A stretch of 64,000 bases of DNA from positions 1 through 64,000 of the forward strand of contig CAZDTP010000005.1 in the NCBI GenBank assembly GCA_964508365.1, read 5' to 3'. The notes beneath the pieces were generated by a model, which was given only the letters and a program-made list of their open reading frames with translations, was not told the DNA's origin and did not search any database. The stretch is from an uncultured archaeon (GTDB lineage: Archaea > Asgardarchaeota > Lokiarchaeia > Sigyniarchaeales > SOKP01). This document shows, one piece after another, positions 4,413-9,563 of this stretch (position 1 is the first letter of the stretch; every line of letters starts with the position of its first letter). The position numbers were made by a program, and so were the translations under genes.

Positions 4413-5411
4413 ATGTTAACTCCAGAACACATTAAAGAAATCTTAAATGAATATACGATTAATCTTAGATTCCATGCTCGTGGAGGACAAGGAGGTGTAA
4501 CTGCTTCAAATCTCTGCGTGGAAGCTTTCTATGGTTACGGTGTGTGCCAACCTAAGTTTGGTGCAGAACGAATGGGAAGTCCAACTGAAAGCTATGTTAG
4601 ACTTTCTGCGAACGCTGATCTAGTAAGGTCAAACGAACAGGTATATGGCCCTCATTTCGTATCTGTGTTAGATGAATCGTTACTCTCAGAAGTAGATGTA
4701 ACTGCTGGCGTACCGAAAGGTGGTTGGTTGATAGTAAATACCGTAATGGATCAACTAACCATTCAAGAAGCTGTAAAGAGAAAAGACATAAACATTGCTA
4801 CAATCGATGCTACCCGAATTGCTCTAGATGTTTTAGGTCGAAACATTACAAATACTATTATATTAGGTGCTTTAATAAGAATCTCTCACCTCTTTACTCT
4901 CGAAGAATTATCTAATGCTATCATGAAGCGATTCAAAGGAGCTATAGCAGGAAAAAATATCGAAGCAATAAAGCAAGCAATTGAAGAAACGTGCATATTT
5001 GACATCGGAGTCGACCCAGATTTTACGGTTGACACTAAAGTACCGTGGCAACAACTAGATTTAGGCTTACCTGGATATAAGGAATTAGATAAAGCGGGTG
5101 TTTGGTATTGCGACGAAGAAGTAATCCCTGTTGGAAGCGATCAAGTGAATACTGGTTCTTGGGGCGAATGGGATATGATTTGGGATGCGGAAACATGTAC
5201 AAATTGCGCTCAGTGTTGGTTCATTTGCCCTGATTTTGCTATTCTTAGAGAAAAAGGGGAAGACGGTAAATATCATATGATTGGAATTGATATATTTCAT
5301 TGTAAATCATGTTTAAATTGTCTAAATATCTGCCCTGTTCAAGCAATAAGTAAAAAATTAAAACAAGGACCGGCTGCTTGTGCAGTACCGGAAGAAAGTG
5401 GAGGTATTTAA
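4413..5411 (+). CDS. porC: 2-oxoacid:ferredoxin oxidoreductase gamma subunit fused to delta (2x[4Fe-4S]) subunit
   Basis: RFHARGGQGGVTA, FGAERMGSP, NTIILGA (gamma), followed by TGSW...CTNCAQCWFICPD...CKSCLNCLNICP (delta ferredoxin). Confidence 0.92.
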   Translation: MLTPEHIKEILNEYTINLRFHARGGQGGVTASNLCVEAFYGYGVCQPKFGAERMGSPTESYVRLSANADLVRSNEQVYGPHFVSVLDESLLSEVDVTAGVPKGGWLIVNTVMDQLTIQEAVKRKDINIATIDATRIALDVLGRNITNTIILGALIRISHLFTLEELSNAIMKRFKGAIAGKNIEAIKQAIEETCIFDIGVDPDFTVDTKVPWQQLDLGLPGYKELDKAGVWYCDEEVIPVGSDQVNTGSWGEWDMIWDAETCTNCAQCWFICPDFAILREKGEDGKYHMIGIDIFHCKSCLNCLNICPVQAISKKLKQGPAACAVPEESGGI

Positions 5412-5412
5412 A

Positions 5413-6636
5413 ATGTCAGTAGAACCAATGAAATTATTTTTCAAAGAGATTAAAGAGCCCATCGAGACGGCAATGATTGGGAATTATGCTGTGGCTGGAG
5501 GAGTTACCCAAACGGACCCTGATGTAATTTGTGCTTTTCCAATTACCCCTCAAACTCAATCCGTTGAGGGATTATCTGATGTCGTTCATCAAGGAAGATT
5601 AAAAGCAGCCTTCGTTAATGTCGAATCTGAATTAGCAGCTATAAGTTATTCAACAGCAGCTTGCGCTGCAGGTGCCAGAACCTTTACAGCTACAGCATCA
5701 CAAGGTTATTTATTAATGTCAGAAGCCTTGCCTATGGCAGTTGGTTGGCGTGTCCCGCTAACGATGATGATTTCAGCGAGAGCTTTTAACGCTCCTAATC
5801 TCTCTATATGGAACAGTTGGGAATATGTGTTAACTGATTACGGTTGGAATTGTATGGTATCGGAGAATGTTCAAGAAACCTACGATGCAGCAATTTTGTC
5901 AGTTATGATATCTGACAATTCTTTGTTTCCAACTATGTTTGTACACGATGGTTTTATTATTTCTCATTCCGTTCAGAAATTATGGTTAATTCCAGACGAG
6001 GTGGTACGGAGATTAACGCCAAAAAAACATCGCCACACAATTACAACTAAACATCCTGGTGTATGGGGCGGAATTGTAACTCCCAGTTTTTTTATGGAAG
6101 GAAGAAAAAATCTTGATGAAGCGAAGAAACCCGTGTTAAATATAATGAAAAAGGCATTCGAAGAATTCGGAAAAGCAACTGGTCGCCATTATAACTTAAT
6201 TGAAACCTACAACTTAGATAATTCTTCGAGAATGGCATTTATTACTATGGGATCGATGTGTGGAAACATCATTAGTTGGATGACTAAAAACAAGGACATA
6301 GGGCTAATTAAAATAAGAGCTTATAGACCCTTCCCTTACGAGGAATTACAAAAGATTGTCCAAGAGCATAACATCGAAAAACTAATTATTCTAGAAAAAT
6401 CAGATTCGTTAAATAATCTTTTACCACCATTTTCCACTTCAATAGCAACAGCGTTGTATCCGCTTAAAACTCTATTTAGATGCTTTATTGTAGGACTAGG
6501 TGGACGGGACGTTACTCGAGATGAATTTGCAGTCGCAAAGAAGAAAATGGAATCTGTTAACGATATGAAAGGACAGCTCTATACTTACCTTGGCGTACGT
6601 GAGACTAAGAATAAAATCTATGAGGTGAACAGATAA
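5413..6636 (+). CDS. porA: 2-oxoacid:ferredoxin oxidoreductase alpha subunit
   Basis: GNYAVA, FPITPQT, ESELAA, TATASQG, IKIRAYRPFP, GLGGRDVT. Start placed at ATG 5413 after GAGGT; the ORF-track start at 5380 overlaps the gamma-delta gene. Confidence 0.92.
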   Translation: MSVEPMKLFFKEIKEPIETAMIGNYAVAGGVTQTDPDVICAFPITPQTQSVEGLSDVVHQGRLKAAFVNVESELAAISYSTAACAAGARTFTATASQGYLLMSEALPMAVGWRVPLTMMISARAFNAPNLSIWNSWEYVLTDYGWNCMVSENVQETYDAAILSVMISDNSLFPTMFVHDGFIISHSVQKLWLIPDEVVRRLTPKKHRHTITTKHPGVWGGIVTPSFFMEGRKNLDEAKKPVLNIMKKAFEEFGKATGRHYNLIETYNLDNSSRMAFITMGSMCGNIISWMTKNKDIGLIKIRAYRPFPYEELQKIVQEHNIEKLIILEKSDSLNNLLPPFSTSIATALYPLKTLFRCFIVGLGGRDVTRDEFAVAKKKMESVNDMKGQLYTYLGVRETKNKIYEVNR

Positions 6637-6637
6637 G

Positions 6638-7723
6638 ATGTCAAAACCAGAAAGAAATGTAATTAAATTCGAAGATATCTTAGCAAGAGATGGAAAATCT
6701 AATGTATTATTTTTAAACTACGATAACGAAGCTTTTATGAACACAGGGATTCAAGAATCAGGTGCTACGCCACCGCACGCTTCGACAACCACTGGACCCG
6801 GTGGAGAAAAAATTCCCGGTAAAGTTGGTGTAAAACAAGATTTAGTTACTCCTTTTGCTTTTTACGGGACAAAATCGTTATTTTTAGCAACGGCAAACCC
6901 CGCTTATCCAGCAGATTTTATGGGAAAAGTTGCTGATGCGTTAAAGTCAAATGGGTCTGCTTTTATTCAAATTTATTCAGATTGCATGCGAGGATGGCGA
7001 CATAGTGCAGAAGACGCGGTGAAAATTTCAAAATTAGCTACGGATTGCGGTTATTGGCCTCTTTACACTATTAGAGTAAAAGATGGAATTCCAACATTTT
7101 CTTATTATCGTGGATTAGAAATTAATAAGGAGAAATTTATAGAATTCCTAAAATCAATGGGCAGGTTTAGACATCTCTTTAAACCACAATTTTTGGAAAA
7201 AGAAATTGATGAAATAATTTACTATACTGAACAACGTAACCTTAAACTAAAAGGACTTATTGAACAGTTTGGAGCCGAAAAACCAATAGACTTTTATCAA
7301 GTGAATCGAAGAACTTTAGAACCTCAAACTCACTTACATCCTGGACACGGATTATGCCCTGGTTGTGGCGCTGGAATGGTCTTGAATCAGATGGCTACAG
7401 CAGCTACAGCAGTTGCGGGTAATAATATTATTTACGTGAATAATACGAGTTGCAGTGAAGTATCGACAGCGAAAGATTTTGTTACCTCGTGGAAGGTTCC
7501 TTGGGTTCACCACTTATTTGAATCAGGTGCAACTATTGCAGAAGGAATAAGCACAACCTATAAAATTCTTAAATCTAAAGGTTTATTCAATGGAGAGGTG
7601 CCGTATGTTATACACATTGCCGGTGACGGTTCTACATATGACATTGGGTTTCAATTTCTCAAAGCTGCCCTTATTCGAACAAGTTCTTTCGTCGAAATGA
7701 ATGAATACTTACAACAAAAATAG
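6638..7723 (+). CDS. porB: 2-oxoacid:ferredoxin oxidoreductase beta subunit, circularly permuted
   Basis: All PorB motifs are present but the order is rotated: YDNEAFMNTG(29-36), SDCMRGW(Cys116), GRFRHL, then PGHGLCPGCG(Cys240/243), NTSCSEV(Cys272), WKVPWVH, GDGSTYDIGFQ(329). Confidence 0.9.
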   Translation: MSKPERNVIKFEDILARDGKSNVLFLNYDNEAFMNTGIQESGATPPHASTTTGPGGEKIPGKVGVKQDLVTPFAFYGTKSLFLATANPAYPADFMGKVADALKSNGSAFIQIYSDCMRGWRHSAEDAVKISKLATDCGYWPLYTIRVKDGIPTFSYYRGLEINKEKFIEFLKSMGRFRHLFKPQFLEKEIDEIIYYTEQRNLKLKGLIEQFGAEKPIDFYQVNRRTLEPQTHLHPGHGLCPGCGAGMVLNQMATAATAVAGNNIIYVNNTSCSEVSTAKDFVTSWKVPWVHHLFESGATIAEGISTTYKILKSKGLFNGEVPYVIHIAGDGSTYDIGFQFLKAALIRTSSFVEMNEYLQQK

Positions 7724-7755: not shown

Positions 7756-8601
7756 ATGATCATGACTTATTCAAAAAAAAATATATTGATAACAGGTGCT
7801 AGTTCTGGAATTGGGAGGGCTTGTACTGAATATTTAGCACTCAGTGGGTTTAAAATTTACGCTGGTGCTAGAAAAAAAGAAGATATTGAAGCTCTTAATG
7901 GGATCAAGAATGTGATAGGCTTAAAAATTGATGTCACCAATGATCAGACTATTAAAGATGCATTTAATTACATAAAAAATGAAAATTCGGGGTTATTTGC
8001 AATTATTAATAATGCTGGAATTGTTTCAGCTGGGCCATTAATGGATATAAGTACCAATGATTTAATCAATCAATTTAATGTAAATCTAATTGGTGTCCAT
8101 AGAATCACCTCAGTTTTTTTTCCTCTTATACTAGAATCTAAAGGGCGAATAATAATGATAAGCAGCAACTCTGGTTTTTTTGCTGCCCCTTTTTTTGGTC
8201 CATATAGTTCAAGTAAATTTGCTTTAGAGGGGTATGCAGATTCTCTTCGAAGAGAACTTTTATTGTATGATGTGAAAGTAATTATCATCCAACCGGGGAG
8301 GATTAATACTCCAATTTGGAGTAAAGGGGAGGAATTACTGCTAAAATTTAAAGGATCCATATTTGAGAAGGAAGCTGTTGTTATTGGTAAACATGAAATT
8401 GACAAAGGTAAAACTGACTCATTAGACCCGACAGAAGTTGCAAAAATAATTTTAAAAGGATTAATAACAAAAAAACCAAAGAATAGGTACATGATTGTCC
8501 CCAATGTGTTTAGGAACAAGATGTTAAAAATCCTATCATCTAAAAGAATCGATAATATTTTGAGAAAGGAATTATTGAAAATTAAAAATAGAAAAGAATG
8601 A
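7756..8601 (+). CDS. Short-chain dehydrogenase/reductase (SDR)
   Basis: TGASSGIG, NNAG, SS, YSSSK catalytic motif. Confidence 0.95.
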   Translation: MIMTYSKKNILITGASSGIGRACTEYLALSGFKIYAGARKKEDIEALNGIKNVIGLKIDVTNDQTIKDAFNYIKNENSGLFAIINNAGIVSAGPLMDISTNDLINQFNVNLIGVHRITSVFFPLILESKGRIIMISSNSGFFAAPFFGPYSSSKFALEGYADSLRRELLLYDVKVIIIQPGRINTPIWSKGEELLLKFKGSIFEKEAVVIGKHEIDKGKTDSLDPTEVAKIILKGLITKKPKNRYMIVPNVFRNKMLKILSSKRIDNILRKELLKIKNRKE

Positions 8602-8720: not shown

Positions 8721-9563
8721 TTAAGTAACATCAACATGAGATTCGATACGGGAAATTAATTCATCAACACGGTTGTAATCATCTATCCTTATGGAGATTG
8801 CTTCATTTGGGCACTCTCTTTCACATCGTCCGCATCCTTTACATTCATTTTGATCAATAAACGCTTTTCCATCAACCATTTTCATCGCATCAAATATACA
8901 TACTTTAAAACATTTCCCGCAACCAACGCAAATATCACTATTAACTTCCACTTCAACGCCTTCCATCCTTGTTATAATTTTTTTAAGGTCTGAAGAACCA
9001 TATTTCATAGCACTTAATATGCAGCAACAGGAACAGCAATGACAAAGCGACATGAATTGACCCTCATCAGGTAAGGTTCCATATCTTATTGAGTCTCCTT
9101 TTAATCTACCCAAATGTGGGACCAACCCATTTTCATAAGCTAAGCGTTCCCGTTCTAATGCTTCTTCTACGGTTGCCACATGAGCGTTATGTGTCTTCCA
9201 TTTTTCAAGATCTATTCTCTTTGTAGCCTCACCTAACCATGTACAACCTTGATGAATGTCATGATTCTGACAATCATTAGCTAAGCGGCATCCACAATCC
9301 ATTAACACTATATGACTTGCTTTTTTAATAAAATACTCTGTAACAATCAAAGGTAATACTTTATCCTCATAAGTACCCAAAGATATATTTATTGGAATAG
9401 CAGAACCATTTGAATTTTTTATATCCATCCATCGATTGAGAATGAATTTAAAACCAGGAATTTTAGATAGTCTTATTAATTTTTTATATCGATTTGCGCG
9501 AGGGGTGTCTATTTCAATTGGTTTTAAATCTATCTCTTGAGTTTTTTTCATACTTGATTTCAA
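8721..9563 (-). CDS. Cys-rich 4Fe-4S ferredoxin-domain protein
   Basis: C-terminal CVGCGKCFKVC and CKGCGRCERECP; extra CGCR..DC..C and CHCCSCCC motifs. Confidence 0.85.
   Translation of the reverse strand: MKSSMKKTQEIDLKPIEIDTPRANRYKKLIRLSKIPGFKFILNRWMDIKNSNGSAIPINISLGTYEDKVLPLIVTEYFIKKASHIVLMDCGCRLANDCQNHDIHQGCTWLGEATKRIDLEKWKTHNAHVATVEEALERERLAYENGLVPHLGRLKGDSIRYGTLPDEGQFMSLCHCCSCCCILSAMKYGSSDLKKIITRMEGVEVEVNSDICVGCGKCFKVCIFDAMKMVDGKAFIDQNECKGCGRCERECPNEAISIRIDDYNRVDELISRIESHVDVT

Follow-up and report, generated by a model that had tools for sequence, protein, structure and literature searches.

A circularly permuted 2-oxoacid:ferredoxin oxidoreductase beta subunit of Lokiarchaeia, with its thiamine diphosphate motif split between the chain ends

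The operon and its rotated beta subunit

The window considered here is a stretch of 64,000 nucleotides (positions 1 to 64,000, forward strand, of contig CAZDTP010000005.1 in assembly GCA_964508365.1) from an uncultured archaeon of the class Lokiarchaeia, and the gene in question, at 6638..7723, encodes a beta subunit of the 2-oxoacid:ferredoxin oxidoreductase (OFOR) type whose two halves stand in swapped order, that is, as a circular permutation. Its ATG at 6638 opens an intact and uninterrupted reading frame (ORF) of 361 codons plus a stop, one base past the stop of an alpha subunit gene and ten bases behind a GAGGTGA ribosome-binding site, read from the sequence, which lies within the end of that alpha gene (6622..6628). 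The alpha gene (5413..6636) encodes 407 amino acids (aa) when read from its ATG at 5413, with GTG 5380 as the start of the mechanical ORF, and carries the Pfam families POR_N and PFOR_II. Ahead of it comes a gamma-delta fusion gene (4413..5411; 332 aa) with a POR gamma domain and a 2x[4Fe-4S] ferredoxin (delta) domain; here Pfam POR covers aa 24-191 and Fer4 families aa 255-312, and the NCBIfam models for pyruvate:ferredoxin oxidoreductase (PFOR) gamma and for PorD cover aa 16-192 and 239-315. The fusion has a likeness to the fused delta subunit of oxalate oxidoreductase (OOR) as well. All these features are on the plus strand. A preliminary description of this DNA, made without database searches, had placed the beta gene in its normal operon position behind GAGGTGA, and with gamma-delta and alpha directly upstream that is where it is found.

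The arrangement mostly recurs in relatives. Alpha adjoins the permuted beta directly upstream in 39 of 41 informative loci, L015, L044, L134 and L137 being exceptions to this adjacency, and the gamma-delta fusion is upstream of alpha in nine of the 11 loci with enough flank, across four families. Among relatives in which the permuted beta has no adjacent alpha are L044 (G156:C1), L015 (G108:C94), L134 and L136, and in the last of these it is followed at once by a gamma, delta, alpha cluster of canonical type.

That the canonical order is rotated, as first claimed from the motifs, is borne out by three kinds of comparison. The NCBIfam PorB model (NF008819) aligns aa 20-192 to profile positions 118-291 and aa 223-352 to positions 4-122, and the same swapped two-piece pattern is given by the VorB-type, OOR beta and PadI models of NCBIfam. 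A six-frame search of the whole genome recovers the same two swapped PorB pieces at 6638-7723. In chain C of PDB entry 9BT4 (9bt4_C, the Methanosarcina acetivorans PFOR beta) the counterpart of aa 228-347 is residues 5-115 and that of aa 22-194 is residues 118-283, and the Moorella OOR beta (5c4i_C) gives an equivalent two-piece swapped alignment. The per-half matches have E-values of 1e-24 to 1e-39, and aligning the halves separately to profile hidden Markov models (HMMs), the check that had been proposed, thus returns two PorB matches in swapped order and not collinear ones. Taken whole the protein scores 219 bits against NF008819, where the cut-off is 405, no collinear full-length match above that cut-off being found, and Pfam TPP_enzyme_C (PF02775), which with NF008819 and NF008818 represents the Por/Vor-type beta subunits, covers aa 20-112 only.

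Read from its start, the chain has an N-terminal tail (aa 1-19; 6638..6694) with no significant match to canonical segments, the HMM match beginning at aa 20. The canonical second half follows (aa 20-194; 6695..7219, from HMM and PDB-chain alignment) and holds a strand with D29-N30-E31, the MNTGIQ sequence, the fourth cluster cysteine C116, YWPLY and GRFRHL, all invariant in 106 sequences; D29-N30-E31 is the Mg/diphosphate end of the thiamine diphosphate (ThDP) motif. A connector (aa 195-227; 7220..7318) spans the step from profile position 291 to position 4 and consists of the canonical C-terminal helix plus some 16-18 extra residues that include a predicted strand at 212-221. Next is the canonical first half (aa 228-347; 7319..7678, delimited by HMM, PDB chains and conservation), with the cluster ligands C240, C243 and C272, the HHLFE sequence, G329-D330-G331 and the helix after it, and this helix is prolonged by a C-terminal tail (aa 348-361; 7679..7720). 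In the alignments C240, C243, C272 and C116 fall on the cysteines that hold the cluster in 9bt4_C and 5c4i_C.

The break of the permutation is the loop between the post-GDG helix and the strand before DNE, inside the GDG-x(24-27)-N motif, just where the preliminary description had put it. Both parts of that motif are retained, one (G329-D330-G331) towards the C-terminus and the other (D29-N30-E31) towards the N-terminus, and do not form a contiguous stretch. The residue positions then given for SDC116MRGW, G175RFRHL, PGHGLC240PGC243G, C272 and G329DGSTYDIGFQ339 were right, and YDNEAFMNTG is indeed present, at aa 28-37 rather than 28-36.

Distribution, selection and origin of the permutation

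A swapped order in a metagenome-assembled genome (MAG) of 149 contigs invites the explanation that it arose in assembly or gene calling, the more so as the sequencing runs with all sampled words are probably the MAG's own source. That explanation is already refuted and its probability negligible. Over 100 homologues that are collinear along their full length (359-368 aa, 55-96% identity) came from a word-indexed protein search; they lie on independent contigs and are labelled Lokiarchaeota, Promethearchaeota, Helarchaeota or Hermodarchaeota, and hundreds of independent contigs share the swapped order. Counting one genome per species, a permuted gene with a strong collinear match is present in 129 of 160 Lokiarchaeia genomes, with every one of the 7 families represented and cultured organisms with closed genomes among them. 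Contigs from other studies span the internal junction, as the preliminary description had wished to see confirmed: record 29 of X5 covers 7178-7351, and record 5 of X20, an 868-nt contig from an RNA library with about 94% identity, covers 6526-7389. Reads of X4 and X22 gave short pieces only and left the gene partly uncovered in X22, and nothing is concluded from them. The swapped order is not a misassembly.

The same count by species across other Asgard genomes finds the permuted gene in 1 of 239 genomes of the other classes of the phylum. This sole hit outside the class (G234:C23:2002-2799) covers part of a permuted porB, lies at a contig end and has 86% identity to the window's protein. Its genome shows 8% contamination, and the hit probably belongs to a Loki contig that was binned wrongly, though it may alternatively record a recent transfer. 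Among the best 150 matches of a HMMER search over 1.84 billion representatives 126 have the canonical order, and besides the known family these 150 hold one full-length permuted cluster (P0122, Helarchaeota) and fragments. Exact look-up identified QEE14985.1 (DSAG12_00808) of Promethearchaeum syntrophicum MK-D1 and UYP46588.1 (NEF87_002873) of Ca. Lokiarchaeum ossiferum as orthologues, and placed a protein of Ca. Harpocratesius repetitus in the permuted family. All three bear the NCBI name 'hypothetical protein'; this label, in MK-D1 and L. ossiferum, and the missed curated HMM cut-offs are due to the permuted order, and since such cut-offs miss the permuted beta, automated Asgard metabolic reconstructions may undercount OFORs.

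For a tree the permuted rows were rotated back by script and aligned with two canonical copies from the same genome and 56 further representatives of canonical order. The 22 permuted rows form one clade (SH-aLRT 100) with a stem of 1.3 changes per site and short internal branches, the genome's own canonical copies are placed elsewhere with support of 96-98, and the tree gives no resolved sister of the permuted clade. It is thus highly probable, in a judgement held jointly with the functional one below, that the permutation arose once, in the stem lineage of Lokiarchaeia, and in a paralogue accompanied by one or two copies of canonical order. The permuted beta would then be a clean synapomorphy for the class.

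The permuted gene is under purifying selection. In pairwise Nei-Gojobori comparisons (51 pairs with dS of 0.2-1.5, the pairs being related and not independent) dN/dS is 0.13 for the whole gene, and by region 0.12 for aa 20-194, 0.08 for aa 228-347, 0.28 for the connector, 0.32 for the N-terminal tail and 0.18 for the C-terminal tail. Invariant in the 106 sequences are C116, C240, C243 and C272, G329-D330-G331, Y28-D29-N30-E31 and N35-T36-G37-Q39, and so the retention of all four [4Fe-4S] cysteines and of both halves of the ThDP motif, seen before in the one sequence, extends across the family. Connector residues L207 and Y220 are invariant as well. With its confident predicted fold the connector is a conserved element and not the seamless in-frame linker it had been called.

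How the permutation came about was addressed from the chain ends. Redundancy of the termini, taken in the preliminary description for the footprint of a permutation by duplication, has no statistical support. Profile-profile alignment is confident for the C-terminal part through R347-T-S-S-F, set against canonical ER-K-H-D-F, and for the N-terminal part only from about K20, which leaves a confident overlap of only some 4-6 canonical positions (C-terminal TSSF versus N-terminal KSNV). Residues 7-18 of the N-terminal tail reach confidence values of 0-2 against the canonical helix and, taken alone, align elsewhere, insignificantly; the N-terminal tail, the C-terminal tail and the extra connector residues, each alone, have hhalign probabilities below 1%. 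Intermediates were looked for as well, and other routes considered and rejected. Among the long hits examined there was no PorB-PorB tandem, these being fusions to ferredoxin, metallo-beta-lactamase or alpha domains. Short proteins starting at the break, which a split-gene origin might have left (P0182, P0236, P0239, P0270), are truncated calls or fragments, and P0182 clusters with a 301-aa member. An intein origin was considered on account of Altiarchaeales proteins, and rejected since the intein site there is one strand downstream of the break and the sites differ.

These Altiarchaeales proteins (P0126 and its cluster, 849-861 aa) and P0214 are canonical-order PorB with a LAGLIDADG intein inside the ThDP motif, in the Altiarchaeales case between ...ERGHDFTYVC and CYDNEAYMNTG. 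In L137-L139 a degenerate second copy of the last ~55 codons (aa 307-361) is found at 2656-2821, downstream of the permuted porB, 45-86% identical and containing a stop, and there the upstream neighbour is an 842-aa LAGLIDADG-containing gene in place of alpha.

Predicted fold and predicted contact with alpha

An AlphaFold2 model built on the 106-sequence alignment has a mean predicted local distance difference test score (pLDDT) of 84.6 and a predicted template modelling score (pTM) of 0.89. It has six strands, three from each half. The connector is confidently placed (pLDDT 89-95) as a helix at 187-211 and a strand at 212-221, the N-terminal tail (pLDDT 77-96) is structured, with a strand at 6-10 and a helix at 11-15, and the C-terminal helix is extended at 338-354. 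In Foldseek and VIA-align searches the only clear matches are OFOR beta subunits and PFOR domain VI (E 1.6e-10), with Z of 11.6-13.8 for 9bt4_C, OOR beta and domain VI. Both programs align sequentially, so that a given superposition takes in a single half, roughly 50% of the model, with TMq 0.43. The relative placing of D330 and N30 and the geometry of the four cysteines would be as in an ordinary PorB.

Prediction of the alpha and permuted beta complex, which had also been proposed for the wider assembly, gave an ipSAE interface score of 0.75 against 0.00 for the best control; 58 of 80 solved complexes reach that mark, as do 2 of 110 mismatched pairs. At least 94% of the contacts are common to the runs, and the pLDDT of the partners is no lower than 83. 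Contacts are predicted between alpha 64-88 and beta 262-316 and 339-358, with C-terminal tail residues 351, 355 and 357-358 taking part. The alpha residues T45, E73 and R123 are the aligned counterparts of T31, E64 and R114 in the PFOR of Desulfovibrio africanus, where Glu64 is the ThDP-activating residue. The predicted alpha stretch includes E73, and the helix with the catalytic Glu would pack on the post-GDG helix of beta. As related complexes have been solved, all this is a likeness and not a proof of alpha/beta binding.

A split motif might of course have abolished cofactor binding and left a catalytically dead subunit, or one repurposed as scaffold, regulator or electron-transfer module. 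The discontinuous ThDP motif itself, the long stem branch of 1.3 changes per site, the whole-protein score far under the PorB cut-off (219 against 405 bits) and a low-confidence loop on the ThDP side of the model would fit such a loss. Yet D330 and N30 for Mg-diphosphate, the MNTGxQ loop and the four cysteines are all invariant, which is unexpected once catalysis is gone, dN/dS is lowest in precisely the motif-bearing halves, and alpha retains the catalytic Glu, Thr and Arg. A dead subunit is consequently very improbable.

Function, paralogues and known relatives

The preferred reading is that the gene encodes a working beta subunit of a three-subunit Por/Vor-type OFOR (gamma-delta, alpha, beta), and for this together with a single origin of the permutation the probability may be put at about 0.85. 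The beta subunit would supply the ThDP-binding PP domain and the proximal [4Fe-4S] cluster. Its chain would begin at the strand before the DNE end of the ThDP/Mg motif, run through the canonical C-terminus, cross the conserved connector into the canonical N-terminus and stop just after the GDG helix, and folding would bring the two motif halves and the four cysteines together like those of ordinary PorB. Decarboxylation of a 2-oxoacid would take place on ThDP where alpha and beta meet, and electrons would pass via three clusters to ferredoxin. The functional natural permutant of the preliminary description appears sound on this account: from the sequences there are its presence in 129 genomes, the purifying selection, the invariant ligands and the mostly conserved operon, and beyond these the confident fold, the predicted alpha interface and the published expression of the MK-D1 orthologue. 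The permuted beta is, then, apparently functional.

Several points weigh against this reading. The gene is dispensable, being missing from about 30 genomes of the class, six of them at least 98% complete, and the one or two canonical-order Por/Vor beta genes in 157 of the 160 genomes could do the same job. In the monomer model the pLDDT of one region only, the loop of aa 32-64 by the ThDP site, falls under 50, and the high score for the complex may mirror the predictor's memory of solved OFORs. RNA-library contigs can hold DNA, and record 5 of X20 stems from a relative. Finally the alpha of the permuted operon scores 296 bits with its best NCBIfam family, PorA_Arch, which is under cut-off, against 417 and 393 bits for the alphas of the canonical operons, and so family scores leave the substrate unsettled.

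The enzyme probably acts on pyruvate or on some other short 2-oxoacid that stems from amino acids. An active permuted OFOR with a physiological substrate other than pyruvate (2-oxobutyrate, a branched-chain or aromatic 2-oxoacid, or glyoxylate-type acids could be candidates) would be a specialised third enzyme, the canonical paralogues being the real PFOR and VOR, and this is a tentative but serious contender. Nearly every genome with the permuted gene has those paralogues as well, the gene has been lost from some complete genomes, and its alpha stands furthest from PorA_Arch. Against the PDB chains the beta scores alike with PFOR beta and OOR beta (157.4 versus 157.3 bits), and the gamma-delta fusion mirrors the OOR subunit layout. 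On the other side alpha agrees with PFOR in its PITP and in the Arg114 equivalent and is without the PIRP arginine of OOR, pyruvate enzymes are the best family matches for alpha, gamma and delta, all below cut-offs, and KEGG and Imachi et al. assign PFOR; none of these is decisive.

In the same genome there are two canonical-order Por/Vor-type alpha-beta pairs, at G000:C32:30003-30878 (L001) and G000:C10:60035-60919 (L002), and the six-frame search recovers ordinary, collinear PorB-type genes on both contigs. The C32 beta scores 405.2 bits with a VorB-type subfamily model whose cut-off is 405, and the C10 pair is followed by an amidase gene.

Expression data exist for MK-D1, in which three Por/Vor operons (DSAG12_00252-255, 00456-458 and 00808-810) are all expressed at some 285-384 reads per kilobase per million (RPKM) in the supplementary tables of Imachi et al. 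2020 (PMC7015854). There DSAG12_00808/809/810 are listed as 'pyruvate:ferredoxin oxidoreductase beta/alpha/delta-gamma' with RPKM of 286/372/314 (Supplementary Tables 3 and 4), and neither the text nor the supplements of that paper mention a permutation (the word 'permut' was sought). Given these values and the canonical copies in nearly all genomes, the permuted enzyme is an expressed third paralogue, one treated as PFOR in the literature by homology alone. The OFOR step has been proposed to conserve energy in cultured Asgard archaea by yielding reduced ferredoxin, which drives syntrophic H2/formate transfer, an idea central to current models of eukaryogenesis (PMC7015854).

Of known systems PorB of the archaeal four-subunit PFOR (9BT4 chain C; NF008819) is a natural comparison, as both halves align to it with about 30-40% identity. 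Shared are the predicted ThDP-binding PP domain with the GDG and DNE Mg/diphosphate residues and the MNTGxQ loop, the four proximal [4Fe-4S] cysteines, WPLY, GRFxHL and a PorA-like alpha partner. Unlike PorB, the Loki chain is rotated, with canonical 118-end first and canonical 1-117 last, and has about 60 extra residues in N-terminal tail, connector and C-terminal tail; unlike in the PorB system, gamma and delta are fused in the Loki operon. The Moorella thermoacetica OOR (PDB 5C4I/5EXD; alpha, beta and a fused delta of domains III+V) likewise has three polypeptides with a fused gamma-delta-type subunit, and the Loki beta is as close to its beta as to PFOR beta. Its beta, in contrast, has the canonical order, and its alpha (5c4i_A) reads PIRPYT where the Loki alpha reads PITPQT. 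Arg31 of this PIRP motif is the substrate-binding arginine of OOR, and the Loki alpha lacks it. Loki alpha and gamma-delta also score much higher against pyruvate families than against OOR. With domain VI of the single-chain PFOR (D. africanus 1B0P; Moorella 6CIN) model residues 20-214 superpose on residues 981-1173 (Z 13.8, rmsd 3.1 Å over 181 residues), and this domain, unlike the Loki beta, belongs to a fusion protein of 1,200 aa and keeps the canonical order inside.

Reviews by Duggleby, by Costelloe, and by Vogel and Pleiss reportedly describe PYR and PP domains in varied orders or on separate chains. Such rearrangements in the ThDP family indicate a fold that tolerates changes of connectivity, but there whole domains move, and the Loki cut lies inside the PP domain. 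Full-text literature searches turned up no paper on a permuted OFOR, nor on any permutation that falls within a ThDP PP domain, and the preliminary description likewise knew of no permuted OFOR beta subunit. One of three Lokiarchaeia Por/Vor-type enzymes thus has a beta subunit with the hallmark ThDP motif split between its chain ends; the PP domain would tolerate a cut within its signature motif, and the break offers protein engineers a natural permutation site. Whether the permutation is neutral is a further matter. With both chain ends and a conserved extension of the C-terminal helix, predicted to touch alpha, beside the ThDP site at the alpha/beta interface, it could give the Lokiarchaeia enzyme a property absent from canonical OFORs, such as a changed way of loading or exchanging its cofactor, gating by oxygen or redox state, or a different range of substrates. 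The proposal is rather doubtful; under it Asgard syntrophic amino-acid catabolism would have the permuted enzyme as its key ferredoxin-reducing step.

Two neighbouring genes complete the local picture of the window, namely a short-chain dehydrogenase (SDR) gene after the operon (7756-8601, plus strand), which is not conserved, and a gene for a Cys-rich 4Fe-4S protein (8721-9563, minus strand). Neither is beside the operon in the relatives examined, where the downstream flank of most loci is limited to about 1.5 kb.

The permuted porB of several relatives is broken up by inserts of some 25-43 nt, mostly near 30 nt, which the window's own gene is without. They bring stop codons or frame shifts, while the flanking frame remains 80-88% identical, and they sit inside codons of the most conserved motifs (AFM|NTG, NTG|IQ, SGxT|PP and IQxY|SDC). 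The insert follows gene nt 112 in L130 (G040:C1), L131 (G151:C195) and L132 (G150:C59), nt 102 in L136 and nt 127 in L134, and L137/L138 have one after nt 118 and another near nt 332. At the centre of each is a hairpin in which the changes between genomes are compensatory, and the 3' end of the insert pairs with the 5' exon, so that from their sequences they look like bulge-helix-bulge-type mini-introns in an mRNA.

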